Shown here: positions 1,815-56,534 of the stretch, piece by piece | Position numbering within the stretch: position 1 is the stretch's first letter | How the letters are laid out: every line of letters begins with the position of its first letter | Assembly (NCBI GenBank): GCA_951406725.2 | Contig: OX597818.1 | Location: 85,870,001-85,934,000, forward strand | Reading direction: 5' to 3' | Length of the DNA: 64,000 nucleotides | DNA from: Octopus vulgaris | Lineage: Eukaryota | Program-made: the position numbers and the translations under genes | The notes under the pieces: model-generated | Seen by the model: only the letters and a program-made list of their open reading frames with translations | What the model was told of the DNA's origin: nothing | Database searches by the model: none

Positions 1815-3246
1815 ATATATATATAGGCAATATTTATATCCAACTTAACGTAGATGCTTTGTTAGAACGCCGAATACCGCATTATTAGCGCTGAGAGAAC
1901 TTCTCATATAGGCTTTTGGGTCATAGAAGCACACTCGTACAGAAGAGACTCAACAGTTATTGGCCGCCGGATCTCCCATAACCTATGATTTCAGTCTACT
2001 GGACATCATCAGTTGGAGGCGTCCGGTTAAGTCTGCTACGATGTATGTGTGTGGTTTTATGCAGCGAATGCTTATAAGTGGGGTTCTGTCAATGCTAATA
2101 ACGTAATATTCGGTGTTCTAACAAGACATTCACATTAAGCTGGATATAAAGATTGCCTTTTGATACTATTATTCTGTCGTATGTATGTATGTATGTATGT
2201 ATGTATGTATGTATGTATGTATGTATGTATGTATGTATGTATGTATATATGTATGTATGTATGATGACGGGGTAGGCAAACACAGACACAAGTACACACA
2301 CACCCACACATATATATACGACGGGCTTCTTTCAGTTTCCAACTACCAAATCCACTCGCAAGGCCTTTGTCTGCCCGACGCTATAGTAGATACTTCCCAG
2401 GTGTCATGCAATGGGACTGAACCCGGAACAATGTTGTTGGGAAGCAAGCTTCTTATCACACAACCACGCCTACGTCTCTATGATAAAAAAAAGATAAAAA
2501 TAAACCCTGATAGAATAAATATTAAACTTTCAGGGCGGTACTCCAGCATGGCCGAAGTCCAGTGACTGAAGCGTAAAGGATAAAGAGTATAAAAGAAGCA
2601 GTAGAAGTAAAATGCCTGTCGAGTTTACAGGAGATGAGAGTTCAAATCCCACAGCAGATATCCAAACGGGTTTTAAACCCAATATTTACATGCTATTATT
2701 TATAGCTTATCTACTTCGAGTTAAACCGTTCCGAAAAAGAATTAATATATTAATTTTATTATTGTTGAAATAACTAAATCTCTAATTGGTTAGATTTCTT
2801 GTTTAAGGCAAGGGTTTTGTGGTTGGGAAGCTTGGTTTGCAAACACGTTGGTCTCAAGTTCAGTCCCATTGCGCGGCACTAAAGCCTCGAGACGGCCAAT
2901 GCCTTGACAGTAAATTTGGAAAACGGAAACTGTGTGGAAGCTCGCTATACACACACACACAGTGGAAACGTATCAAATTAATGTGTTTTTATTAATACTG
3001 CAGGTTTCTTTCTGACTTTGACACGAGGCCAGTTATTTTGAGGGGAGGGGAAAACCGATTACATCAATCCCAGAACTGAATTGGTGCTTATTTTTATCAA
3101 TGCTGTAAGAACGAAAAACAAATTCGATCTCAGCGGCATTTGAACTCAGAACGTACAGTTGCCACTAAGGTCGATTTTGTCTGTCCTTTCGGAGTGAATA
3201 AGGAAAAAAGTACCAGTAACGTATTGGGGTGATGGTATCGACTAAT

Positions 3247-3827
3247 AAGGCGGCGAGCTGGCAGAATCGTTAGCACGACGGGCGAAATGCTTAGCGGTAT
3301 TTCGTCTGCCGTTACATTCTGAATTCAAATTCCGCCGAGGTCGACTTTGCCTTTCATCCTTTCGGGGTCGATAAATTAAGTACCAGTTACGCACTGGGGT
3401 CGATGTAATCGACTTAATCCGTGTGTCTGTCTTTGTTTGTCCCCTCTGTGTTTAGCCCCTTGTGGGTAGTAAAGAAATAGGTATTTCGTCTGTCCGCTGA
3501 AATCGACTTTGTCTTTCATCCTTTCGGGGTCGATAAATTAAGTACCAGTTGCGTACTGGGGTCGATGTAATCGACTTAATCCGCGTGTCTGTCCTTGTTT
3601 GTCCCCTCTGTGTTCAGCCCCTTGTGGGTAGTAAAAGAAATAGGTATTTCGTCTGTCGTTACGTTCTGAGTTCAAATTCCACCGAGGTCGACTTTGCCTA
3701 TCATCCTTTCGGGGTCGATTAAATAAGTACCAGTCACGCACGGGGGTCGATATAATCGACTTAATCCAATACTCTGTTCTTGTTTGTCTTCTCTGTGTGT
3801 AGCCCATTTGTGGGTAGTAAAGAAATA
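3247..3827 (+). mobile_element. Nested array of three SINE-B units (Tx1-type tail), inserted in an older SINE-B copy
   Basis: Head AAGGCGGCGAGCTGGCAGAATCGTTAGCA and three tails ending GTGGGTAGTAAAGAAATA. Outer 16-bp TSD GATGGTATCGACTAAT at 3231-3246 and 3828-3843. Inner 15-bp TSD GGTATTTCGTCTGTC at 3480-3494 and 3643-3657. Confidence 0.9.
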
Positions 3828-13177: not shown

Positions 13178-13776
13178 AACACACACACACACACATATAT
13201 ATATATACATATACACATACACACATATATCAAAATAAGGAAAACACAGGTCGGTCCAAGGCTATAACAGAAAACACCTGCTTAAAGTACGCGCAGTGAG
13301 ATAGCCCGAAACCTCGTGGCTGCAAATATGATAACAGCTAGGTAGGTGTCTATTTTGTACAAATAATGATAATAATAATAATAACTATATATATACAAGA
13401 ACACCAGAGTATATTCCGCGGTATTTAGTTCAATCAGCGATACAAACAATAAAACTGAATAAAGTGTCCGATGCGCTACATAAAGGTAAACAATTCCTTA
13501 AAATTTATCTTAGAGTAACCTCCCTTGAATTCTTTAACATAGTCATATAGTTTTGCAGCTGGCAGAAACGTTAGCACTCCGGGCGAAATGCGTTGCCGTA
13601 TTTTGTCTGTCGCACATGTGTTCGTGAAGTAAGAATTGCTGTTTCGTGGTGTTAATATTGTTAACAACTGTTGTTTCTTGTTAAACTGTTGAATAACTTA
13701 ACTGTTGGAGTTTTCAATTGAAAACACTTAGTGCTTGTGGTAGCACGCGTTGTTCATTCCCCCTTTGGGGGGAAGA

Positions 13777-15299
13777 ATGTCGTCTAGCATGGAGCCTACC
13801 GTTGGAGCAGAAATACTTGTTTCTCCTGTTGAGAGGAGGAAATACATGTCCGGCGAGGAGCCAACTACAGACAAGGAAATAGGGGTTTCCCCCGCTACAA
13901 GAAGGAATAGCAGAGAGGATAATATATTTGATATTTTTGGAGATGTGTCTGAGAGCTCGTCAGAACTTTCACCAGAAGAGTTTCCGACTTTGCCAGAGAA
14001 CAAAGGCATTGTGTCGAAGAGAATAATTGATGTGCCTAGCATCCAGATAGAACCAAAAAATGGGAAAAAAAGTTTTGCGTTGGCTGCTGGGTGTGGAACC
14101 CAGATACTGTCGACGAATAAAAGCGAAATTATGAAATACAGCAAAATGATGGAAATAACTGACAACGGTGTGAAAATTGAACCTCCGCAAAAGTTATTAC
14201 AGGAAGAAAAGCAAAAAACAATAATTTTCAAAACATATTGTCTACAAAAAAGAAAAATTGAAAGAATGTCAGAAGAGAAAATAGAAAAGTGCTTAAAGCC
14301 AATATTGGGCGACGTAGTATTTCTGAGAAGAGGAAAAAATTCGGAACGGTGGAAGTTAGGTTCACCAATAAAGAAATAGCACACAAGAACTCAGTTGAAA
14401 CGTTGAAAACGAACGACGTGGAGTTAATACCCTATTATATGGGGATGAGGACGTCGCGAATAAAAATTACAAGGGTCCCGCCAGAGGTCGAACCGATGTG
14501 GTTGTTGGCGGCAGTCCTAATCAAAGAGGTAGAAAAAATTACTCTCCTCCAGGCTACAGCTACGGAAAACCCACGCTGGGATGGTCAAACAATTAATCTT
14601 CTCATTCAAGCGGACCCTAAAATAATTCAAACAATTCCTGAGACAATTGAGGTAGGGGAGGAGAACCTCGTGGTGTTTGTTGAGGGCCGAAAACCTCGAT
14701 GTTTTTTATGTGGTCAATTAGGCCACATTCGAAGGAACTGCAAGGAAAATGAAGAAGAGGAGGAAGAGGAGAAAAAAGACAAAGAGGAAGAAGATAAAGA
14801 AGAAACAGATGAGAAAAAAACAACAAACAAAAGAAAAATACAACCAGCAACCCAGCCGAGAGCGGTGACTACTACAGAACAACGACAAAAAAAGACTGCC
14901 AGAAGAGAAAAAGAAGAAAAAGGCATAATAGCCGTTTACACTAAAGATACTGAGCTCATGAGAGACATTCAACTCATAAAGACTGTAAAAAAAATTGATA
15001 ACCTTTCAGAGGAATTTATCAATTACGACATATATGAAGTCTCAAATAAGACTTATAGAATTCTACAAAATAAGTACAGAAAGACTGAATCTTCATTGAG
15101 ATTAGATTTTAACAAGTCGATATTTCATGGATTACCAGCTCCGATCCCGCGAGAAAAGGAAAAGGTAGAGATTCCCCCTCCACCTGATAATTCTGTGTCG
15201 GTGGTGAGACGGGATTTTGACAAATCTATTTCCCAAGACCGTCCACCTCCGACCTTGGATAAAAAAGGTGGAGGGTCCCCCTCCACCGGACAATCCTAA
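13777..15299 (+). pseudogene. Tx1 ORF1 (gag-like nucleic-acid-binding protein), one -1 frameshift near 14334-14340
   Basis: ORFs 13750-14379 and 14289-15299 join as VVFLRRGK/KFGTVEVRF. Zinc knuckle CFLCGQLGHIRRNC followed by an acidic/basic tract. Confidence 0.85.
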
Positions 15300-15311
15300 T
15301 TAAACAGGTAA

Positions 15312-18300
15312 GTGATGGCTATTCACATTGGTTGTTTAAATGTTCATGGCCTGTTGTCAAGCTGGAAGCAAGGACGCTTTCTGAATGACATCAGGTCGAG
15401 AAATTTGGATGTAATTGTTGCAACGGAAACCCGGGTGAAGGGGCCAAGAGATCTGCTCCCCCTCCTGAACGGCTACGAGAAATACGTTTCTCCGAGTCGG
15501 GCGGGAGGTGGAGGTGGGGTGTTGGTCCTACTAAAAAGAAACCGGGTAGCCGAGAAAAAGTTGTTTTTTTCTGACCCAGAAGGCAGGCTGGTCGTTCTCG
15601 ACTTGACATTCAGTTGTGGCAAGACAATCAGGCTGGTCGCTATTTACGCACCAAACATTATTGGCCCGCAAACTGAATACTTTCGTGGCCTAGGAAAGTT
15701 CCTAGCCACGTCGCATTCACTAGTAGTGTTAGGAGACTCTAATACAATATGTGCAGCACACACAGATTGTGTTGGCTCAAACTCGAACATGAACAGAAAA
15801 TGTAACCTTAGGCTTTCGGGATCTGCTAAGTCAATTTCAGCTAGCAGATCCATATAGGTTGGAGCACCCGAACACTCCACATTGAACGTGGTCAAATAGT
15901 GACGGGTCTACCAGAACATATCTAGATAGGATTTTAATTAGAGAAAAAGATAAGTCCATAGTTGAGTGTCCACAGTTTTTTCTAGTCAGCTACAGTGACC
16001 ACAAGATGGTTACCTGTAAACTGACGGTAGATAAGTTGCATAGACAGGGATCTGGCTACTGGAAACTCAATACGTCCCTTTTGGCGATTGAGGAGTACAG
16101 AAAGCGGATCAAGATGTTAATACAGAGGGCATTAACAGGTACCATCATTAATAGCAAATGGTGGTACGCCCTAAAAAGAGCCATCAAATATGAGTCTATT
16201 AGGTTTAGCATAAGTTTAGCTAAGAAGGGACGTAAAATAGGAGATGGTCTAGTTAAGGAACTAGAAGAAGCCTGGAGGACTGGTAATACAGACCAAGCGA
16301 GGGTGAAAAGACTGGAGTTAAACCAGCATCTTGAAGCCCACCACATGGGAAGTATTACCAGAGCTAAGTTACGTGCAATGGGAAGTGAAGGAATCAAAGC
16401 CGCTGGATGGGCCCGAGTGGTGGAAGCTCGGCAAGGAAATAGTTCCTCTATTCGGTCTTTGACGAATCAAAATGGTGTCTTGATAAACGAACCCGAGAAA
16501 ATGTGTGAGGTCTTTCGGGAGTACTTCGCCCAGCTGTTCGGGGGTGACGGCGGTCCTGGTGGTGGGAGAGCCCTCGAGGACTTTCTTACCGGGCTGCCGT
16601 GCCTCTCGGGGTCGGATGCGGAGTCTTGCGAAGGGCCAATCACACCTGAGGAGGTGATGGAGGCTTTGGCCGATTGTAAAGCGGGTAAGTCACCGGGACT
16701 TGATGGTCTTCCGTACGAGCTGTATAAATGTATGCCAGACTTGTTCGGGCAACTACTGACTGACGTGTACGCGAACTGGAAACAGAATGGGTTTATCCCC
16801 AGATCTGTGCGCCGGGGAGTAGTGACGTTGGTCAGAAAGGACCCGGACAAGGGGGACGTTCTAGAGAATTTCAGGCCCATCACTCTGTTAAACGCAGAAG
16901 TGAAGATTTTGGCCAAGGTTCTAGCAAAAAGGTTGGCGCGTGTCGCGAATGGTATAGTCGGGGAGGTACAGACATGTGCCATCCCAGGCAGAACCATTCA
17001 GGATACCCTCCATCTTATTCGCTATACCATAGAGAGGTTTGGTAATAAATCTGGCAAAGGTGGGGCATTGGTGCATTTGGACCAGTCTAAAGCTTTTGAT
17101 AGGGTTGACCATCGATACCTAGCGACTGTACTTGCGCAGTTTGGCCTGGGCCTTGGCTTCCTCAGGTGGTTTATCGCTTTGTACCACAACATTGACTCGA
17201 TAGTTCGGGTGAACGGTTTCCTTTCGAAGCCGTTCTGCATCAGACGCTCGGTTCGTCAAGGATGTCCGCTTTCACCACTTTTGTATGTGATGGCTCTCGA
17301 GCCATTACTGCAAAGGTTGAGTGGCATCCCGAGAGAACCAGGACTAGAGGAGTTTGTTACGGCTTTCGCGGATGATATCACTATCAGTGTAACCACAGTG
17401 GCACGCCTACGTGAAGTAGGTAAGACTATTGAGGCTTACGAGGAGGTAGCAGGAGCAAAGATTAACCGGGAAAAGTCGGTCGGCTTGCAGCTCGGCACCT
17501 GGGTTGGCAAGTCGATGCCTTCAGACAGTGTTGTTAGGCGCTGGACGGAGGGACCGGTTAAGTTGCTGGGAGTCTGGTTTGGACCAGGCCTCCAGATAGA
17601 GAAGAACTGGACGGAGGTATTGAGCAGGGTGGCTGCAGTAGTCAAGACCTGGTCTTGGCGGTGGCTATCCCTGAAAGGGAGGGCGGAAGTGGCCAATGTG
17701 TTTATCGCATCGGTCATTACCTACCGCCTGACCGTCGTGCCCTGTCCGGATTCGTGGTTGATCAGGTTGGAGAGACAGCTCTTTCGCTTTTTGTGGAAGG
17801 GCAGGTCGCCACTTGTGAAACGCTCTGTCTGCTGTCAAAAGCCTTTAAATGGAGGTTTAGGGATGCCTTGGTTAATGATGCGCAGACATGCGTTGAGGTT
17901 GAGGCACCTCTGGATTCTCCTGGATAGTGAACGGGTGTGGTCTCCGCTGGCCAGACAAATGTTCCCTGAGTTCAAGAGTTTTTGCGAACAGGAAGCCTGG
18001 TGTTCTCGTAGACCGAGGTCGAGTGAGTGGCATAAAGAGTGCCGTAAGGCCCTCTTGCTGTTCCGGCGCTCGGGCAACGCCAGCGGTGGGGGTTCCACAC
18101 GGATTTTATATAGTGGGTTGGTAGAGTCTAAATGTGACGATGGCCTGGGGTCGACTCTAGGTCTCGGATTTATTCAACTGGACAGCTTGTTTCATCGTAC
18201 ATTCGGGTTGAGAACGTTGGACAACTTCCAAAAGTCCTTAACCTGGCAATGCTACAGAGGTGCCTTGCCCGTTTGGGATAAGCTCGCAAGACATGGTAAA

Positions 18301-18720
18301 CGTCAGTCGCCGACCTGTCCAAGATGCGGGGGGGGGGACAGGGAAACCGTCCCTCACGCTATTGTTCAGTGTCCGGAGATAACTGAAATGTGGGCTTATG
18401 CTGAACATCTGTTGTCCGGCGAAGGAAGAGTACGGCTGTCGACTGAGTCAATTATAAAAATTGACCCACCGGGAGTTCTAACGATCGAAGGTAAGAATTG
18501 TTTTCTCACGGTTGTAGCAATAGCAAAAGAGGCTGTATGGAAGACTAGGATAAAAGGAATTAAGACAGGCAACTTTATCTCTGGTGACAATTTACGATCC
18601 TTTTTTTCTTTTCATTTGAAAAGGAAACTGTGGCTGGAGAAGAGGTGTCTGTCAGAGTGTACGTTCCAAAAGAGATGGAAGTATGTTGCACGAGTGTTGT
18701 GCGTGCAAGGAACCGTGTGA
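15312..18720 (+). pseudogene. Tx1 ORF2 (AP endonuclease + reverse transcriptase); frameshift near 15800-15830 and TGA at 15883
   Basis: APE motifs LNVHGL, ATETR, IYAPN, LGDSN, TWSN, YLDRI, SDHK and WKLNTSLL. RT motifs KSPGLDG, FRPITLLN, LDQSKAFDRV, VRQGCPLSP, FADD. C-terminal CPRC...HAIVQC. Open for 904 aa from 16006. Confidence 0.95.
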
Positions 18721-19869
18721 ATAGACGAGGAAAAAAAGAAAAAAAGGAAAAATAAAAAGGTATCAGCGATAGATCGGGGCTTGTGGGATCGGAGCGTAAC
18801 TTGATCATCGCTTCATTTGTATTGTTTTTGTACTGTGTATTCCATTCGATTTTTATGTATTGTATTTTATTTTTGATGTCACATTTATGTAAAATCATAT
18901 CGATTCACTGATTCCATCAGTTGTACTGTCCATATCTATGTTTGGCCCCCGGTGGGCAATTCGTATTTTGTCTGCCGTTACGTTCTGAGTTCAAATTACG
19001 TCGAGGTCGACTTTGCCTTTCATCCTTTCGGGGTCGATTAAATAAGTACCAGTTACGCACTGGAGTCGATATAATCGACTTAATCCATTTGTCTGTCCTT
19101 GTTTGTCCTCTCTGTGTTTAGCCCCTTGTGGGTAGTAAAGAAATACATATAGTTTTGCAGTGTGTTTTCGGAGACGCTAGTGGTAGAAAAATGGATAAAC
19201 TCCAAAGCAGCTTATAGTTATGTCTCATTGCATTTCGAGTTCAAATCCTGCCAGTGTAGTAGACTTGGCTTCGTTCTTTCGGGATCAGTGAAGCGAATAG
19301 CAATTTGCCTGTTACTTGAACCTTGTGTACAAATGGCTATTATCAAAGAAAATATTTAAAATATTTAGGCGCAGAAGTGGCTGTGTGGTAAGTAGCTTGC
19401 TTATCAACCACATGGTTCCGGGTTCAGTCCTATTGCGTGGCACCTTGGGCAAGTGTCTTCTATTATAGCTTCGGGTCGACCAAAGCCTTGTGAGTGGATT
19501 TGGTGGACGGAAACATATATATGTATATGTTTGTGTGTCTGTGTTTGTCCACCCCACAACATCGCTTGACAACCGATGCTGGTGTGTTTACGTCTCCGTC
19601 ACTTAGCGATTCGGCAAGAGAGACTGATAGAATAAGTACTAGGCTTACAAAGAATAAGTCCTGGGGCCGTTAAGTATTTTGTCCGGCGTGCTAACGATTC
19701 TGCCAGTTCGTCGCCTTAATAATCTTTTCTACTATAGGCTCAAGGCCTGAAATTTTGGGGTAGAGGACAAGTGGATTACATCGATCCCAGTTGTCAATTG
19801 GTTGGTACTTATTGTATTGATCCCAAAACGGATGAAAGGCAAAGTCAACGTCGTCAGAAATTGAACTAG

Positions 19870-22200
19870 GCACGACGGTCAGGTGGTAACAGATAACAGA
19901 TGCAATCTAAGCATTCGCCATTTCCGCCTGGCTCTTCAGGGCTAGTTTTGTCTCAGTCCATTTTGGGGGGAGACTAGCCATCTTGTTTGTCATATCTTCC
20001 TAGATCTTGTCCAACGAGAAGTCTAGACCAAACCAATCTCCGAACAATTTAACAGGTTCGTCCATCCAGTGCCCTACGTCCTGCTGGATAGGATGGACCT
20101 ACCACTCCAGGTGCCAACATGCAGGACCATCAAATCCTCCTGATTAATTTTTGCTTCAGTCACTGCCTCGCAGTTCGAGTAGTGCCGATCGCCTCGATGT
20201 GTTTGGTGTATATACAAATACGGATCCTCCATATCCTAGTTCTCCCGAGTTGCCTTTCAAAACCTCCAACTTCTGCAGTATAGGCTCGAGAGTCAGTACG
20301 TACAGAAGTGGAGAGAGAGGAATCCTTGACAGACCGGGCGCATGAGACTAAACGGTTCTGTCAAGTGGCCATTTTCTTTGATCATGAGCAAATGTCGTAC
20401 ATTGCAGCGATCCAACTTTTGAAGGATCAGAAACCAGATGGCTTGAGGATAATCACCGTGGTCTACCTATCAAATGCTTTCGGCTGATCTGAGCCCCATC
20501 CATATCAGGTGGTTTACTCACCCTTACTATGATGCATCGCGGGAGGTGGAGGTTGTCGCTAATATCTCTGTTTGGTACAGCGCATGTCTGTGCCTCACCA
20601 ACCAGAGTCTCAACGAAAAGCGTCAACCTCTTAACTCACACCTTGGTCAAAATCTACAACTCTGCATTTAACAGAGTTATGACCCTGAAGTTGTTAAAAA
20701 TCACCCCCCGCTCTTTCAGGATCCACACTACCTCTATTTGTTGGGCAGTTGATTTTAGCGTTCTGCTGCCAGTTCCAGTAGACATCTACCAAGAGGTTTC
20801 CGAACAAGCCTGATATATAACGATAAAGCTGAATGGGCAGACATCCAGCCTCGACGACTTCGTCGTGCAACCCGTCATCGCATCCCGTATTTTGTCAGCT
20901 GTAATCAATGTTTCCCAGAAACCCACAACCCCAGTCGAGAGCCGTGGCAGGCCATTGAAGTAGGCGATAAAGTCCACCTCCGTTTCCAGTCTCCCATTCA
21001 CACCAAAGAGTTGGGCAAAGTGCCACTGAAAAGCTGCACACATCTGCTTGGAAGCGAGTAGCACGCGCACTTTCAAATCCATCAAAGATTAAATTGTGGA
21101 TTTGTTGCTGCGTTTCACCTCCTCCACCCGAGTTCATTGAATGGCTCTTTTTCCTTCATGCCTTACAGAACGTGTCTTCGCTATGACAATGCAACCTTCG
21201 TACTTAACATTGAAAAATAGATCAAGGGCCAATCTTACTGCCAGCACATCAGTGGCGATGTCATTTTCAAGTGCCCTTTATAAGTTACTACCTATCTTAC
21301 TCTCTACTCTCGAATTCCTTCTCTATTTCCTTAGCAGACCTTATAGGTTTTAATCGAATAATCCTTTTCAGGGATAACCACCTTGGTTGTTGACGATTGC
21401 CCTCGTGAACTCCATCTTAACTAGTACCCTAGTCTGGTCTCAAAAAACTTGGCGCACCGGGAAGGACGCGTTCAGTTTCTCTTTCTCTGCAGCCAATCTA
21501 GGTTGATCGTACAAATCACAAATTTGTGGTCTCTGTAGCCGACAATTTTGAACTGAGGATAACCTGTGCTATACCTGTCTACTAACCTACAGATTACTGT
21601 ATCTAGATACAATAAGGGTACTTTTTATCCATGTTCACATTGGCACATGAGGGAAAATCTAGTCGGTACCTGCTAGTCAGCTAGAAATGACTGACAGGTT
21701 TGCGAGGTTCTTAACGCCCCTCTCACATTAGCTAGCCCCACACAATCTACACGTGCATCCATAATGGCGTTCCAATCATTCACTAGCACTAAAGAGAAAG
21801 AGGTCCCAAGGAAAATCCCGACTACCTGAAGAAATCCAGCTGCTCCGATCCAGTGGGGGCATGCAAGGAGACTAGTCAAAAGACCTTCACTACTGTTGTA
21901 CGTGTCCAGGAAGATCAATCGTATCTCGGGGGGCCTAGGCTTTTCTAGAACAGCATCGCTACTCCCCCCCCCTCATTCCAGATCGAATAAGAGATGCGAT
22001 TATCTGAAAATCACCAAAAATGGGTGCCAAGGCGCATGTGTCGGAAATCCTGGTCTTGTTGACGGCCATTACATCCAAACTTAGCGACCCGAGGTCAGTT
22101 AGCAAGTGACTTTTTTTCCAGTCTGACGTGCATATATGTTACTCTCACTTAAGGCTGGTTGAATCGGAAACAGGTTACTTACCTGTCTGATGGTTCACGA
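19870..22200 (-). mobile_element. Second, heavily decayed Tx1-like LINE (ORF2 relic)
   Basis: Minus-strand relics match the intact copy: GYRDHKFV (SYSDHKMV), KLNAS (KLNTS), QMCAAFQWHFAQLFG (KMCEVFREYFAQLFG), NFRVITLLNAEL and HLTVVP. Confidence 0.85.
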
Positions 22201-33819: not shown

Positions 33820-35920
33820 GTGTGTGTATGTGAGTGTTTGTGTGTGTGTTTGTGTGTGTTTGCATGTATTCACTTATATATCTATGAGTGTGTCTTTGTA
33901 TCTATGTTTGTACTCGCCACCACCCGTTCCACCTGCGCGTCCTCTCCGCATATTCCAATGACTGAGCGGTTTGACAAAAGAAACTAATAGAACAGCTAAC
34001 AGATCAAAAAAGAAACAAACAAAACCAGAAGTCCTGGTGTCGATTTGTTCGACTAAAACCCTTCAAGGCGGTGCCCCAGCATGGGCGAAATCCAATGAGT
34101 GAAACAAGGGAAGCCTAGTTGTTAAGTCCATCAATAGTTACCCCACCTTTACTTGCCACACACAAACACACAGATATACACATGCATACACAAACACACA
34201 AACACACACACACATACACACACATACACATATAGAAACGCATGCACATACACGCAATATACATATATATGCGTACACAAAGACACGCTTATAACAACGC
34301 ACATATACTTATACATACACACACATAACGCAGCACATGCATGCATTTACATACACGTACACACGTACACATAACACTGCACAAACACAAACATAATGCA
34401 GCACACATATACATATGCTCAACCAAACACACACACCATGTCAAACTACATCTCACACACATTTACATATTAGCACACTATCATAAACTCATAATCATAC
34501 ACATATATACACGCACACTACTCGCAAATAGACACACATTAATGAACACCCAAACACGCACGCACGCACACGCACACACACGTGCGTGCGCATTCTGATA
34601 TACAATCTCTCTGACACAATCTTTTTATATCTCTCTCTCTTTTCTTCTCTCTCTCTGTCTCCCTCTATTCTCTCTTTCTCGCACACTCTCTGACACACCG
34701 TCTCTCTTATACACACAATCTCTCCCTTCCCCTCCCTCTTTTTCTTTCTCTCTCTCTCTCTTTCATACACACACACATATACACATACACACATATACAC
34801 ACACATATACGTACATACATATATATACACACATATACACACACTCTCTCTTTCTCAACTCTCCATACATTTTCTGTCACAATTTCGCTCACTTTTCGTC
34901 TCTCTCTCTCCCTCTCTTTTTTTTCTCTCCCTCCCACTCACTCTTTCTCTCTCCCACTCACTCTTTCTCTCTCTCTCTCTCTCTTTCTTTCTCTCTCTCT
35001 ATCTTTCTCTCTCTCTCCCTTTCTCTCTCTCACACACACACTGTCATTCTTCCTCTCCCTCTCTGCTTCACACAATTTCTGTTTCTTTCCACCTGCCCCT
35101 TCCCTCTCTTCTCTTTCTCTCTCACTCACACACATTCTCTCCACCTCTCCCATGAGACACACTCCCATGAGACGTCAAAGCGCCCCCTGTCATTAGTTGT
35201 CGGTATTTTTCTTGCCAAGTAGCCATTACATTTGTTTGACAGGAAACGAAAAGATAATAATTTGGGCTCGAAATTATCGGAAGACGTGTAGAACGAAACA
35301 ACTTAACAACTTCGAAATCCCACATTTCTTCATCTCCAGGAAACGGACCATTTTCCATTAGTTAGGGAGCCTGTTTGCTGCATTCGAAGTAATCTGGATT
35401 CTGTTAAACTGTTCTAGATTAAAAGATACAATATCTGATTCAAGAGTTCGGTTCCTGCTGCGAAACATTCGATTGTTTCCATGGACAAACAAAACGAATA
35501 ATTTCTATTGGCATTGGTTTATCATGCAAAGAATTCGGCACCAATGTGTCTGAGAAAGACAAGAGCTACATCAAACCAGCGGTTAATATTTCAGTAGCCA
35601 GAACCAAATACACATTTCTCATGCTATTTATGATTTCTAAAGTTGCCTTTTATCCTCAACGCAAAATGATAAGAAGTCTATTTATTTTAGGTACTAGGTC
35701 TGAAATTTTATGAGGAGAGGCAAGTCAATTACATCGAACCCAGTGCATAACTGGTACTTATTTTATCGAACCCGAATTTGAACTCAGAATGTAAAGACGG
35801 ACGAAATATCGCCATACCTTTTGCGAGAGATTCTTGCAGCTCATCACCTTATCAGCAACAGCAGCAGCAATGATAATAATAATAATAATAATTCTAGTAA
35901 ACAACAACTATAATAATCCT

Positions 35921-36462
35921 AGTTAATTTATCGACTCTAAAAGGATGAAAGACAAAGTCGACCTCGGCGGAATTTGAACTCAGAATGTACCGACAGACGA
36001 AATACCTATTTCTTTACTACCCACAAGGGGCTAAACACAGAGAGGACAAACAAGGACAGACAAACGGATTAAGTTGATTACATCGACCCCAGTGCGTAAT
36101 TGGTACTTAACTTATCGACCCTGAAAGGATGAAAAACAAAGTCGGCCTCGGCGGAATTTGAACTCAGAACGTAACGGCAGACGAAATACGACTACGTATT
36201 TCGCCCGGCGCGCTAACGTATCTGCCAGCTCGCCGCCTTTAATAATAATCCTTTCTACTATAGGCATAAAGCCTGAAATTTTGGAGTGAAGAGGATAGTC
36301 GATTGCATCGACCCCAGTGCGAAACTGGTACTTATTTTATCGACCCTGAAAGGATGAAAGGCAAAGTCGGCCTCGGCAGAATTTGAACTCAGAAAGTAGC
36401 GACAGGCGAATCTCCGCTAAGCATTTCGTCTAGCTCACTAATGATTCTGCCAGCTCGCCGCC
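35921..36462 (-). mobile_element. SINE-B cluster including a self-nested unit
   Basis: On the minus strand the tail ...AAAGAAATA is followed directly by GGTATTTCGTCTGTC (35992-36006) and a second body. A copy with the alternative (ATT)n tail lies at 36240-36462. Confidence 0.85.
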
Positions 36463-39566: not shown

Positions 39567-40081
39567 TCTCTCTATATATAAACGGCAGTTTGTCTGTCTG
39601 AGTGTCTGTCAGGTTGTACCCTCACTCTGACCACGCCTTTCAACCGATTCTGATGAAACTTGACACACACACAGCCCAATGTCATAATTCAAAACTAACG
39701 CAGCGAAAATTTTGAAATGTTCCCCCAGTTCTGAAAAAAATTGATAAATTCGACATGGGGTCGAGATTCTAAGCTTTTTATTTGCAACACATTTTCTGTT
39801 GTAGTTTTCGCAACTTGCAATCGATTTTGACCAAACTCATGGTGAAGCTTAATGTTACCCTAAGAAACTTAATTCTGACGTTAGTTTTCCATGAAATACC
39901 TTACCATCAGAAAAAATCGATAAAATCATGCCATTTTGGGAAATCGCGTTCAAAATCAAGATGACATATTTTCGACAATATCTTTCACAAATTGGCAGGA
40001 ATTTTTTAAAAATTCACAGCGAACATCATGTCTGCTCCAGGGGCTCTTACATACCCGGGCAATGCCGGGCTATGCTGCTAG
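39567..40081 (+). mobile_element. Non-autonomous Helitron, deletion derivative of the 52081-56530 family
   Basis: A|TC start TCTCTCTATATATAAACGGCAG; end TACCCGGGCAATGCCGGGCTATGCTGCTAG|T. Matches the reverse complement of 56000-56525 and 52081-52123. Confidence 0.92.
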
Positions 40082-52201: not shown

Positions 52202-55200
52202 TCACAGGAATACTTCTGTATATACGATGTTCCTAGCTGTCCGTTTGGGCGAAAACATGAAAACATCATTGCGCCTCCCAACGCGTGAACAGCCCACGTA
52301 GAGTTGACCGTGGGCGAAGCACTGTTCGCCCAAATGTAACCCAGCGACTTGTAGCGTTTGGCCTTGGGATTTATTGATGGACATTGCGAAGCAGAGTTTA
52401 ACAGGAAACTGAGAACGCCTGAAGTGGATTGGTAGGTCAGCGCCCGACGGTTGAAGGTGCATCCGTGGAATGAAGACGTCCTCTCCGTTCCCACAACCGG
52501 TAAGTATTGTGACCGTTATTAAATGTGGTGCCAAATGTTTCACAACCAAACGTGTGCCGTTGCACTGTTTAGGTGGAACCAAATTCCTGATGAGCATAAT
52601 GGGCGCACCGACTTTTAACTTCAGGATGTGTGGTGGCAGGCCTGGCGGTTCAAGTGAATTCAGGAATTCAACAGGATAATCGGCAAGCTGGGCGGGGTCT
52701 GCTATCCTATCTATAGATTTGTAGACGTGGACATCACCAGGAATAGCTTCAAGTAGCTGGATATTGATGGAGTTGACGGTTGTATTTTTGGGTGCGAGAA
52801 TAGCTCTGCCTCCCAGCCATTTTAGGTCGCGTAAATTGTTTTGTAGGTCGTGGAAGACAGCGTCCCGGAGGCTAGCAGGGGTGTCGACAATGGTGCAAAG
52901 TGAGTCCAATTGAACGTAGCCATCCGCATCAGACAGCATCCTATTTTCACCGAGCGATAAGAGGTCCCTGGAGAATGCAGCGGATCCGCTGTCACCAATT
53001 AACTGCGCGCGCATGTTAGTTTGGAGGTGCAAGGGCCGCACATGTGCCCAAAGAGCTGACGACTTAAGGCACGCGCGCACGGCATCGGCACGGGTTCCTT
53101 TTGGAATAACAGGTAGAGTCTGCCTGAAGTCTCCTGAAAGAAGTAAAGTTAATCCTCCCATGGGGGCCGTAGAGTCTCTGATGTCTTGCAGGGACCTGTC
53201 CAGTGCCTCAAGGGCGCCTTTTAGTGCCATAGTGCACTCGTCCCATACGATGAGTTTGCATCTGCGCAGAATGTCGGCCTGTTCTGAGTTCTTGGCGATG
53301 TTGCAGATAGGTGACTCGGACTTTGCCAGATCGAGCGGCAGTCTGAAGGCAGAGTGGGCGGTTCTGCCACCCGGAAGCAACGTGGCCGCGATACCAGAGG
53401 AAGCTACAGCCAGGGCAATGTCCGTGTTGCGTCTGACCTCTGCCAGAATTAGTTTAGTGACGAAGGTTTTGCCAGTGCCGCCGGGTGCATCAAGGAAGAA
53501 AATCCCCCCACGTTGCTGTCTGACAGAGTCTACGATGGTGTTGTAGGCTATGCGCTGGTCTGGAAGCAGCCGTGGTTCATTATCTTGGACGTACTGGTGC
53601 AGTTCCTCAATGCAGTAGGATGTTTCGCGTAACAATTCAGCAGACATAACATTGGCGTGTTCACGTGTGGGTGGTGGAAGGCCGTACTCTGTTAAAGCAG
53701 ACCCACCCATATCGATGACAGCGTCTTCGAGTTGAATGAGCGCAAAATTGTAAATGAAGTTGGTGAACGTGATCTCGGCGGAAGGGCAGTGTTGCTGAGC
53801 CGAACGTAAGAAGTCGTGCGACATGTCATCCCTGTATTTCATCCAGAGACTTAGTGGATCACTAAGCTGACATTTTTGAAGAAGGATTGCGAAAAGATGT
53901 CGTAGGGCCGAATGCGTTTGCAGTAAAGCACCCTCTGCCATCGTGGCGTCCCACTGGGAGTCATCCTCTAGAAGGCCAAGTCTCATACATGCTTCCCTGA
54001 AGGTGTCGCACAGAACCCCATTGACGGTACGTATATTGGCGAAACCTGTTGGACCAGTGACCTCATGTAGAAGGAGACGGAGGTAGAAGCATTCTTGCTG
54101 GTTTGGCGGGATGTTGTAAACTCGACCCAGGCAGGAGTCAAACTTGACGCCTGGGAAGCTTTCGACGTTTTTGCCGGATTTCCGTCGAACCCAGGTGTTT
54201 TTAGACCACACGAAGTACGATGGGACCTGTGGGTACAAAAGCGTTCGAGCGAAGTCATCACGTTGGCATAATTTGAAGAAACCAGTCAACGTTGTGTCTT
54301 TAGGGCTGGTGGCTATCTGCACAGCAATTTGCTCTGTGAAGTAAATCCGCTGTCCATTTTCCAAGTGTACAGCAAGCTGCACCACAGCCGGGTGTCTCTG
54401 ATGGAGCGGGAAGCCGTAAATGCGCCAAAACGCTTCGTTGCTGCTGAGGTACCGGCCAGCCAAGTAGTTGGACACTTCGTTGCGACTGGTGGTCCTCTGG
54501 ATGCTGAACATGGCAGCATCGCTGCCTTTGTTGATATATTTGCAGACATATTGTATTGACCTGATGGAGCTGCAGAACTCAACGTTGACGTGGGCTTTGA
54601 ATATCTTCGACAGGAGAGGACAGTAGGGGACAATGTAGCTGTTGTCCACTTGATGTCGCCCAACCGTAATCGTGCGGCCTCCATTAGCTGGACTCCTTCG
54701 TTTGTACAGCGGATACCCATCGCCGCCTGTTTGAGTCTCCAAAGTGAACCGTTTAGGGAATCCCTTTGAGCAGGCTAATCCGTTTTTGTAGCATGGTGTG
54801 TTGGCATAATTTGGTCCACAGGGCCCGTGTACCATGGTAGTGCGGACAATTTCGTAGAGTCCGGGGTCCTCATCGGGGTCAGGAATCTCGGCGGAAATGA
54901 ATTTGTCAATGTCATTAGTCTCGATTTTATGAGTGAGCCAAATTAAGATGTGAGCATGTGGCAAGCCCCTCTTTTGCCACTCGACCGAAAACATGTGGCA
55001 CCTGACATGCCCGAAAATCTGACCCTTAACTATCAAATCCTTCATTTTGCCCAAATTCAGAGGGAAAACCCTAGCAACGATGTCGTGTCGATGGGTGTGA
55101 GATTGACCCGGGAAGAGTTCGCGAGTGATTTCGTCGCAGCTGGGATTGCACGTGTAGGTGATAAAGAGGTCCGGCCGGCCGTAAATGCGCACGTAGGTCA

Positions 55201-55378
55201 AGGCGTCTTGGGTCCTTTCACGCATATATCGCGGTCCTCCCGTGAAGGTGGAGGGTAGAATGCATGGCGAGAGGCGCAAGGCGGTTTCCTCGTGGGTCTC
55301 GCGTGCCTTTCTAGCCCTAGCAGCCGATGCCTTGGCCGTCCGAGGGCTGAGGAGGGTCCTTCTCTTCTTGGGTGGCAT
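52202..55378 (-). CDS. Helitron RepHel (HUH-Y2 Rep + PIF1-family helicase), 1058 aa from MPPKKRR
   Basis: Rep motifs LPSTFTGGPR, DLFITYTCNP, VEWQKRGLPHAH (HUH), YVCKYINKG (Y2). Helicase motifs LDAPGGTGKT, WDECTM, GDFRQTLPV, SINKSQGQT, HGQLYVGCSRV. No stops. Confidence 0.92.
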   Translation of the reverse strand: MPPKKRRTLLSPRTAKASAARARKARETHEETALRLSPCILPSTFTGGPRYMRERTQDALTYVRIYGRPDLFITYTCNPSCDEITRELFPGQSHTHRHDIVARVFPLNLGKMKDLIVKGQIFGHVRCHMFSVEWQKRGLPHAHILIWLTHKIETNDIDKFISAEIPDPDEDPGLYEIVRTTMVHGPCGPNYANTPCYKNGLACSKGFPKRFTLETQTGGDGYPLYKRRSPANGGRTITVGRHQVDNSYIVPYCPLLSKIFKAHVNVEFCSSIRSIQYVCKYINKGSDAAMFSIQRTTSRNEVSNYLAGRYLSSNEAFWRIYGFPLHQRHPAVVQLAVHLENGQRIYFTEQIAVQIATSPKDTTLTGFFKLCQRDDFARTLLYPQVPSYFVWSKNTWVRRKSGKNVESFPGVKFDSCLGRVYNIPPNQQECFYLRLLLHEVTGPTGFANIRTVNGVLCDTFREACMRLGLLEDDSQWDATMAEGALLQTHSALRHLFAILLQKCQLSDPLSLWMKYRDDMSHDFLRSAQQHCPSAEITFTNFIYNFALIQLEDAVIDMGGSALTEYGLPPPTREHANVMSAELLRETSYCIEELHQYVQDNEPRLLPDQRIAYNTIVDSVRQQRGGIFFLDAPGGTGKTFVTKLILAEVRRNTDIALAVASSGIAATLLPGGRTAHSAFRLPLDLAKSESPICNIAKNSEQADILRRCKLIVWDECTMALKGALEALDRSLQDIRDSTAPMGGLTLLLSGDFRQTLPVIPKGTRADAVRACLKSSALWAHVRPLHLQTNMRAQLIGDSGSAAFSRDLLSLGENRMLSDADGYVQLDSLCTIVDTPASLRDAVFHDLQNNLRDLKWLGGRAILAPKNTTVNSINIQLLEAIPGDVHVYKSIDRIADPAQLADYPVEFLNSLEPPGLPPHILKLKVGAPIMLIRNLVPPKQCNGTRLVVKHLAPHLITVTILTGCGNGEDVFIPRMHLQPSGADLPIHFRRSQFPVKLCFAMSINKSQGQTLQVAGLHLGEQCFAHGQLYVGCSRVGRRNDVFMFSPKRTARNIVYTEVFL

Positions 55379-55500
55379 TTTGGTGGATAGCAATGTGTTT
55401 GGCAAAGGTATAATAAAAAGGAACACGTGGGGTAAGTATTTTGGTGGATAGCAATGTGTTTGGTAAAGGTGTAATAAAAAGGAGCTCGTGGGGTAAGTAT
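55379..55500. repeat. Two-copy 61-bp tandem repeat just upstream of the RepHel ATG
   Basis: TGGTGGATAGCAATGTGTTTGG...CGTGGGGTAAGTAT at 55381 and 55442. Confidence 0.85.
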
Positions 55501-56534
55501 CCGAAAATCTATAAAAATGTACAAAAACGGCCAAAAAGCTGGCAGCAATGTGAGTGACAACAACGAAAAAGTCAAAAGTGATCAAACTGAACAAACGAAA
55601 GGAAAAGTTTTTTGATGCACACGACAAAAGTGGTTTATAATAAACCAAGAGTTTGCAAGTAGCGTCCGAGGACCGTTAGGGTACGTCAAAAATTGAAGGT
55701 AAAACGTTTGGGGTGGTAGTTATAAAGAAAGTTTAAACAAAAAAAGTATTCGAATAACTTGCGGCTGCAGCAGCTATTAGCAGAAGTGGCGGTGTTGGGG
55801 GTAAAGTCTCGAATGTAATTTCTTCCTGGTAGGAATTGGTTGGATCGAATTATCGATAGCTAAAAAGGTCAAGTTGCGTCCCCTAGACAGTCTGGTTTGT
55901 GTTTAATACACAAATTTGTTTGCTATGTGTGCCACATATGATTAAATTAACCGATTTTTTCCAATAATGTATCCTATTGGAATAAAAAGGGCTATATAGC
56001 TCCTTGGAGCAGACATGATGCTCGTTGTGAAAAAAAAAAGATTCCTGCCAATTTGTGAAAGATATTGTCGAAAATATGTCATCTTGAATTTGAACGCGAT
56101 TTCCCAAAATGGCATGATTTTATCGATTGTTTCTGATGGTAAGGTATTGCATGGAAAACTAACGTCAGAATTGAGTTTCTTAGGGTAACATTAAGCTTCA
56201 CCATGAGTTTGGTGAAAATCGATTGCAAGTTGTGAAAACTACCATAGATAATGCGTTGCATAAAAAAAGCTTAGATTCTCGAGTTGCGTCCCCTAGACAG
56301 TCTGTGGTTCGTGTTTATGGTTCTCGACCCCATGTCGAATTTATCAATTTTTTTTCAGAACTGGGGGAACTTTTCAAAATTTTCGGTGCGTTAGTTTTGA
56401 ATTATGACATTGGGCTATGTGTGTGTCAAGTTTCATCAGAATCGGTTGAAAGCCGTGGTCAGGGTGAGGGTACGAGAAAACAGACACACAGAAGCACGCA
56501 CAGACAAACTGCCGTTTATATATATATATATATA

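Follow-up and report, generated by a model that had tools for sequence, protein, structure and literature searches.

The 64,000-nucleotide stretch of Octopus vulgaris DNA analysed here (contig OX597818.1, positions 85,870,001 to 85,934,000; hereafter the window, to which all plain coordinates refer) carries a long interspersed element (LINE) inserted within a short interspersed element (SINE) of a family termed SINE-B. An earlier note, made from the sequence alone, had described a SINE-B copy with its own 15-base-pair (bp) target-site duplication that is split by a full-length LINE of the Tx1 clade, and had proposed that the SINE is both passenger and target of this LINE. The split arrangement is borne out: an outer duplication encloses the SINE, an inner one encloses the LINE, and each of the two words occurs exactly twice in the window. 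The locus is organized as follows, with all features on the + strand and open reading frame abbreviated as ORF.

13544 to 13558, +: outer target-site duplication of the host SINE, 5′ copy, 15 bp; exact match only here and at 19146
13559 to 13609, +: host SINE-B head, C-type variant, without the first ~9 bases; from BLAST against the other window copies
near 13560-13570, +: box-A-like stretch in the SINE head, by eye against a consensus
13597 to 13609, +: inner target-site duplication, 5′ copy, 13 bp; exact match only here and at 18962
13610 to 18961, +: L1-group (Tx1-like) LINE, full-length, 5,352 bp, young subfamily, both ORFs frameshifted
13744 to 15299, +: ORF1 in two frames (13744-14379 and 14262-15299) with a CCHC zinc knuckle (PF00098)
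15312 to 18720, +: ORF2 in two frames (PF03372, PF00078, PF13966)
15312 to 15857, +: apurinic-type endonuclease part of ORF2 (PF03372)
15886 to 18720, +: reverse transcriptase and zinc-binding domain part of ORF2 (PF00078, PF13966)
18914 to 18961, +: LINE 3′ tail, resembling that of SINE-B; other copies have 8 bases more
18962 to 18974, +: 3′ copy of the inner target-site duplication; the only other exact match is at 13597
18962 to 19145, +: host SINE-B body and tail (tail 19100-19145)
near 18988-18999, +: box-B-like stretch in the SINE body, by eye against a consensus
19146 to 19160, +: 3′ copy of the host SINE's outer target-site duplication; the only other exact match is at 13544

In SINE coordinates counted from 13559, the inner duplication at 13597 to 13609 covers positions 39-51, which also form the 3′ arm of a predicted 12-bp hairpin in the SINE head (folded from the copy at 3246-3330). 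Position 39 in this numbering corresponds to nucleotide 48 of a complete copy.

The LINE is full-length, as the earlier note had stated, and is not intact, with ORF1 and ORF2 each split by a frameshift. Among 17 other full-length copies, ORF1 is open in two and ORF2 in four (1,101-1,134 codons), and both are open in none. The order of domains in ORF2, from endonuclease through reverse transcriptase to C-terminal zinc motif, is that of the L1 group, and among solved structures the reverse transcriptase scores 176 bits with human L1 ORF2 against at most 76 bits with R2, these being the two clades compared. Judged by its sequence, the element is a member of the L1 group of non-LTR (non-long-terminal-repeat) retrotransposons. 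Its ORF1 carries a single CCHC knuckle (PF00098), a zinc knuckle that is typical of ORF1 in the Tx1 clade, unlike mammalian L1. The closest named protein in the protein search comes from Argonauta hians (62%). A coral protein matches with 35% identity over 420 amino acids (E 3e-68) and bears the automatic label 'Transposon TX1 uncharacterized 149 kDa protein'; apart from this automatically named protein, the protein searches, a cluster look-up and Atlas returned no named Tx1 reference. Membership in the Tx1 clade is likely.

One nucleotide of a SINE as the LINE target

An exact 33-base tail pattern locates LINE 3′ ends at 68 places in the genome, two of them neighbouring duplicates, and the flanks of all were read. 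At 64 of the 68, the LINE tail runs on into SINE position 39 in the same orientation. Two further tails end at a target-like motif in non-SINE DNA (L058 and L111; at L111 the motif is duplicated upstream of the LINE), and the remaining two end elsewhere. An automated count gives 63 of 68, having missed one host with a short deletion, and in a mapping that presupposed no position, 56 of 60 distinct LINE tails fell at +39, with no other SINE position occupied. At the 5′ side, a SINE head ending at the target precedes the LINE at all 30 loci examined, which were drawn from 40 scored and include the window copy. The 3′ junctions, whose tabulation the earlier note had proposed, thus share one register and one orientation, and the random flanks that would have spoken against a specific target are not what is found. 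The LINE lineage is site-specific for one SINE nucleotide throughout the genome. It leaves a 13-15-bp duplication; passages of PMC4494074 describe the targeting of a specific sequence in a multicopy repeat, accompanied by a short duplication, as common in the Tx1 clade.

Two full-length LINE-in-SINE units lie 6,450 bp apart with identical flanks (L013 and L014; G000:C3:153112107-153123905) and represent a local tandem duplication. Many 5′-truncated LINE copies end in the SINE body and have no upstream SINE head (L093, L097-L099, L101, L102, L106, L123, L124), owing either to target deletion at insertion or to later loss. A short copy with an inverted 5′ part (L019 / L128) displays the pattern expected from twin priming. 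Contigs of four other sequencing runs contain the LINE family and both LINE-SINE junctions, and no locus-specific empty site was found among them; the joints that skip the LINE in those runs have short sides, and any SINE copy could give them.

The host SINEs are older than the LINEs that they contain. Among 15 young full-length copies (105 pairs), the LINE ends are 98.8-99.1% alike, whereas the host SINE heads and bodies around them are 89-91% alike (105 pairs), so the hosts predate the insertions. An outer duplication of its own is present in 11 of 18 host SINEs. Alternatively, the SINE head and body could be parts of the LINE that move with it as one unit, with no targeting involved; both SINE halves accompany every full-length copy examined, and two copies have host-body variants in common (L095 and L096). 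This explanation is extremely improbable. The divergence of the hosts is about tenfold that of the LINE, on which ground the SINE body was rejected as a LINE part; the distal 26 bases of LINE-host heads have diverged as far as those of plain SINEs (6.4%, n=34, against 6.7%, n=40); the hosts include differing SINE variants as well as an older family with another tail, SINE-A; and inner duplications are present. Several rare SINE variants are shared by unlinked or distant LINE hosts, namely the pair L095 and L096 and the pair of the window and L121, whose LINEs are not specially close. Such sharing may reflect SINE sub-subfamilies or conversion.

Use of the same site by SINE-B, and a change of target base

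SINE-B is about 231 bp long, and 37,820 exact tails occur in the genome. It has the traits of a transfer RNA (tRNA)-type SINE, being short, interspersed and present in high copy number, with variable duplications (9-22 matching bases at 39 of 95 non-SINE flanks). Its head contains box-like stretches, recognized by eye in comparison with a consensus, and a cloverleaf-like fold is predicted for it; the head hairpin folds with a z of -2.86. ARAGORN and Rfam gave no match in the window, nor in the SINE head at a loose threshold. As an abundant tRNA-type element, with a head shared among families that differ in their tails, SINE-B would fit the octopus SINEs OK, OR1 and OR2. Two further SINE-B assemblies lie in the window.

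3249 to 3827, +: SINE-B trimer with one head, its units joined tail to position 39 at 3480 and 3643 by G-type junctions
35920 to 36237, -: C-type-head SINE-B, then a G-type junction at 36006 into a second, partial SINE unit

The joints between SINE units at 3480 and 3643 (+) and at 36006-35992 (-) have a register identical to that of the LINE insertion site, as the earlier note had observed. Genome-wide, 16,869 of the 37,820 exact SINE-B tails (44.6%) are followed by the G-type site. Target-like sites amount to about 2 in 10,000 strand-bases within the window (25 sites); both this fraction and the 64 of 68 LINE tails therefore exceed chance. A sample of 256 distinct SINE-B tails was also mapped, non-random in that its members were picked via LINE, tail or double-head patterns and many come from one chromosome end. 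Within it, 145 tails land in a SINE: 129 at +39, eight at +6, eight elsewhere and none antisense. These counts uphold the proposal that the SINE itself enters SINEs at the same nucleotide, and the junctions of LINE and SINE at position 39 support the further proposal that the SINE head carries the target, so that new copies become landing sites.

Among the 95 sampled tails in other DNA, a duplication was detected for 39, and 36 have at least 10 matching bases. The upstream genomic copy in those 36 bears an N-R-T-A-T motif, with T in 26, A in 29 and T in 23 at positions 3-5, while its first base is G in 16, T in 10, A in six and C in four. Because the motif is present in the upstream genomic copy, the preference of SINE-B is for pre-existing DNA. 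A target followed by a new head is found in 83 matches (~65 loci once neighbours are merged), and the target recurs after the inserted SINE at 17 of the 18 double-head loci viewed. Full-length SINEs within SINEs that have both duplications, such as L146, do exist; one of the 17 has a private base in both copies, and for several the host is an old SINE-A. Identity among SINE-A units located behind a SINE-B tail is 84.7% (27 units), compared with 81.8% for solo SINE-A (16 units) and 91% for SINE-B. A single dimeric master behind the SINE-B/SINE-A composites was rejected, since the SINE-A partners are nearly as diverse as solo SINE-A.

The target itself occurs in two main forms. A linked base five bases upstream and position 39 itself read, in this order, TG in 49 and GC in 31 of 101 SINE heads, and the two bases pair in the predicted head hairpin as U-G or G-C. 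SINE junctions have G in 134 of 141 cases and C in one, and double-head matches comprise 83 of G type and two of C type, although 31 of the 101 heads are C-type. The two C-type matches stem from one locus, a triple-head array without a matching downstream junction, which was rejected as a clean insertion. LINE copies less than 95% identical to the window copy have G in 11 of 15 cases, whereas those at least 95% identical have it in none of 42 (41 C, one T; Fisher p 7e-9), in a count that leaves out in-SINE LINE copies with fewer than 100 aligned bases. Short truncated young copies are also found behind C-type heads (L108, L114, L122, L128). The older copies are 84-93% identical and roughly coeval with SINE-B (91%). 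With the young subfamily at C and the SINE at G, the window subfamily is unlikely to have mobilised most SINE-B copies, and its older relatives are the best candidates.

The 25 bases around the presumed nick have diverged by 1.5% near LINEs, and so are as young as the LINE, compared with 4.5% in plain C-type heads. This near-perfect flanking sequence fits either strict target choice or copying from RNA. In the latter scenario, transcripts running on into a downstream SINE would pair with the target, pick it and re-template the site. Consistent with this, the LINE start is often preceded by two bases that do not match the 3′ copy of the host, and co-transcription with the target is said to strengthen specificity in passages of PMC4494074. 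However, strict choice by the enzyme explains the low divergence equally well, and off-target and unique-DNA insertions have only a short motif, located in the upstream genomic copy and with first-base mismatches in 5 of 36. The placement of short 5′-truncated young LINEs behind C-type heads likewise argues against guidance by RNA, as does the near absence of SINE insertions from C-type hosts, which led to the rejection of the idea that the junction G is templated by SINE RNA. RNA-guided targeting thus appears quite unlikely.

How the LINE and the SINE may be coupled

LINEs with an apurinic-type endonuclease insert by nicking the target and through target-primed reverse transcription. Our preferred reading, to which we assign a probability of roughly 0.78, is that the LINE lineage nicks SINE position 39 and that its older members copied SINE-B, each copy adding a target. 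The LINE endonuclease, an enzyme class described in passages of PMC4494074 as the main determinant of the target site, would nick the bottom strand just 5′ of a core N-R-T-A-T-T. The best genomic match to this motif would be SINE position 39, between the box-A-like and box-B-like stretches, and target-primed reverse transcription at the nick would leave the 13-17-bp duplication. The LINE would be strict and land almost only in SINEs. SINE-B RNA, by way of a tail common to the LINE group, would be copied by older G-preferring members or by a close sister with the same target; its copies would settle at less exact matches in unique DNA and, with high frequency, in SINE-B and the older SINE-A, so that targets multiply. 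Arrays would grow additionally by local duplication. The youngest LINE subfamily would use the C variant, left almost untouched by SINE insertions, and each LINE insertion, by separating the box-A-like from the box-B-like stretch, would cost the host SINE its promoter.

Several observations weigh against this reading. The distances between LINEs and those between their host bodies are weakly correlated (rho 0.17, the pairs not being independent). Over 46 bases, the SINE-B tail matches LINE families 1, 2 and 3 at 37, 39 and 41 positions, respectively, and is thus closer to sister families 2 and 3 than to family 1, the window lineage; the last base also differs, the SINE ending in ATA and the LINE in ATT. 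Four matches were obtained when a LINE ending in exactly the SINE-B tail was sought, three of them LINE-like copies with other flanks and one a SINE; none of the three lies at position 39. The SINE-B tail variant closest to the tail of the window LINE is found at 39 in 0 of 14 cases and at AGAA in five of 14, and the most frequent variant, which resembles that tail less, occupies 39 in 99 of 152. Within arrays, identity reaches at least 96% in 32 of 74 adjacent SINE-B pairs, a level seen in 4-5% of control pairs. A single head is present at 41 of 42 headed junctions and two heads at one, making the textbook structure rare. Finally, a SINE-A-type start occurs 2,298 times behind a SINE-B tail and 807 times behind its own head, an imbalance that calls for very high occupancy or for composites having spread to some extent.

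The array data could alternatively mean that SINE arrays are multimeric masters transcribed whole, expanded by local tandem duplication, and that only the LINE is site-specific. The near-identical neighbours imply that local duplication or multimer copying contributes to arrays, the T4 run that stops polymerase III is missing in 41 of 58 first units, and some inserted elements are dimers of identical units (L204); the scarcity of second heads points the same way. Full-length insertions with duplications on both sides, including those in old SINE-A hosts and one with a private variant (L146, L202, L203, L204), nevertheless argue for insertion, together with the diversity of SINE-A partners and the motif upstream of insertions in unique DNA. 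Moreover, 42 of the 74 adjacent pairs fall below 96% identity, most of them in the range of unrelated copies. As a full account this alternative is very unlikely, and multimer copying or tandem duplication probably explains a real share of SINE junctions regardless. The tail-chosen sample contains 77 junctions, 35 with a headless upstream unit and 42 headed. A C-type head is combined with a G-type junction in 11 of the 41 single-head cases, near the overall share of C-type heads, suggesting that the incoming copy is usually the source of the head close to the nick. Single heads probably arise by pairing of the complementary DNA with the homologous host head, or by later collapse of two heads. 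Tandem arrays of SINE heads only, with a period of 64-67 bp and up to at least 8 units, occur at G000:C10:17996023-17996501, G000:C5:87874181-87875487 and L275, indicating that SINE heads recombine.

The choice of mobiliser cannot be read from the 3′ tail. The earlier note had pointed to a tail shared by LINE and SINE, which is indeed shared; it does not single out the window LINE, as at least three sister families carry it and insert elsewhere. The same 4-bp hairpin is predicted in four of five tails folded, none of which folds better than shuffles (z -0.2 to 1.0). Sister family 2 is at position 39 in 0 of 30 copies and enters other repeats. In 3′ flanks at L221-L250 (G000), it enters at least two other repeats at fixed positions, by subfamily, and Rfam and ARAGORN found no match in 10 loci of this family. 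For sister family 3, the flanks come from 20 of 40 matches and from L110; 0 of 20 are at position 39, and there is a weak preference for an AGAA start, with two cases at SINE position 6. Position 6 of the SINE head is used both by this family and by some SINE-B copies (L110:5050-5130; L253; L104), and at L110 both families occur within one SINE head. A fourth, LINE-like family (L271, L273, L274) has the tail closest to SINE-B in its pre-hairpin spacing; its three copies have different flanks, none of them at position 39. The sister families are the best control that abundance alone does not yield the position-39 pattern. It is the exactly shared target nucleotide, and not the tail, that links SINE-B to the window lineage.

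SINE-B could nonetheless have been moved mainly by an unseen or extinct sister with a G target, the window lineage merely sharing the site. The clade-wide tail, with its better fit to sister families, would be accounted for, as would a young subfamily on C beside SINE junctions on G; tail variants with differing flanks make more than one LINE partner likely. Set against this, the three sister families examined are all absent from position 39, and older copies of the window lineage occupy the same nucleotide with G while being coeval with SINE-B. We regard such a separate driver as somewhat unlikely. Under the preferred reading, older G-preferring relatives (or an unseen sister), rather than the window subfamily, probably moved most SINE-B copies. 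The interpretation in the earlier note is partly supported: the exact target is shared, and the window's young subfamily, whose site is C where that of the SINE is G, was probably not the main mobiliser.

The C variant may have spread because it escaped insertion. More tentatively, LINE and SINE could form a closed loop of escape and chase, in which the SINE serves as cargo and as a self-multiplying safe harbour, and a SINE that is hit has its internal promoter split by a LINE or is buried in arrays by a SINE. A head variant with two changed bases, in which the hairpin stays paired (U-G to G-C), would have evaded the G-specific machinery and accumulated uninterrupted, and the youngest LINE subfamily would then have adopted this C variant as its sole target. 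If this were true, the co-evolution of a LINE and its passenger's target could be read base by base in old and young endonucleases, and the loop would shape a sizeable part of a genome of 2.8 gigabases.

Other repeats are present in the window. An uninterrupted frame of 1,157 codons at 52202-55675 (-) encodes Helitron_like_N and PIF1 helicase domains and represents a Helitron with an apparently open frame. An old, decayed relative of the same LINE group lies at 19868-21609 (-), with 28% protein identity over 597 amino acids; a SINE-A-type element near 19676-19867 cuts into its 3′ side. An inverted pair of 247 bp, 94% alike and 16 kilobases apart (39761-40007 and 56036-56282), is not SINE-B and is probably another repeat family. 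A repeat search of the whole window was dominated by microsatellites.

Relation to known systems

Site-specific retrotransposons are thought to persist by using harmless multicopy targets, such as fixed host genes, microsatellites or unrelated transposons. The octopus target would instead be amplified by the machinery that uses it, creating a feedback loop in which one parasite keeps making landing sites for another. Such a loop would explain why nearly half of the exact SINE-B tails sit inside other SINEs, with consequences for repeat annotation, copy counts and age estimates in the octopus genome. The G-to-C change and the sister families with the same tail also provide a natural series for finding the endonuclease residues that determine which target is chosen, a question of long standing in apurinic-type LINEs and one of use for programmable insertion tools.

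UnaL2 and UnaSINE of the eel are a stringent LINE-SINE pair sharing a 3′ tail. Like the stringent pairs described in passages of PMC3747384, SINE-B ends in ~46 bases resembling a LINE 3′ end; unlike them, the octopus tail is common to at least four LINE families, and the target register rather than the tail names the partner. The head-to-tail joining of units resembles that of the dimeric and complex SINEs covered in part of the SINEBase account (PMC3531059). In contrast to those, the octopus junctions recur at a fixed internal position, in hosts of varied ages and families, with no single dimeric master.

A published Octopus vulgaris annotation counts 421 insertions in 13 L1-Tx1 families with recent activity and puts SINEs at 11.6% of the genome (PMC13282606, in part). 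The words 'nested' and 'target site' do not occur in its main text, and its one supplement was searched too. Passages of PMC4758252, PMC3747384, PMC3531059, PMC8967140, PMC4640811 and PMC9115989, their supplements lying outside the search, contain no LINE that targets its own passenger SINE. No report of such a LINE was found in the literature searched; Repbase, Dfam, Ohshima and Okada 1994, Kojima and Fujiwara 2004 and Albertin 2015 lie outside that search and could hold one. A target-specific Tx1 element with a co-targeting SINE is already known, and the SINE itself as target was not found in the literature searched.

Among the elements treated in passages of PMC4494074, Tx1L of Xenopus targets Tx1D, Keno targets U2 small nuclear RNA genes, and Kibi and Koshi target microsatellites. 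The octopus LINE resembles these in having an apurinic-type endonuclease, in inserting strictly into a repeat of many copies and in leaving a short duplication. What they target is a DNA transposon, RNA genes or microsatellites, whereas the octopus target is a LINE-dependent SINE. Closest to the present case are the crocodilian Tx1-Mar LINEs and SINEU, which according to the same passages share a target inside Mariner-N4_AMi and whose partnership was inferred from shared target and age. Both systems feature a LINE and a SINE with a common target in a repeat, families with different sites, and tandem SINE insertions that flank a duplication. In the crocodilian system, however, the target is a third element and the SINE has a U1/U2 head, whereas the octopus target lies within the passenger SINE, so that targets multiply; the octopus system further differs in its one-base shift of target with age and its shared 3′ tail.

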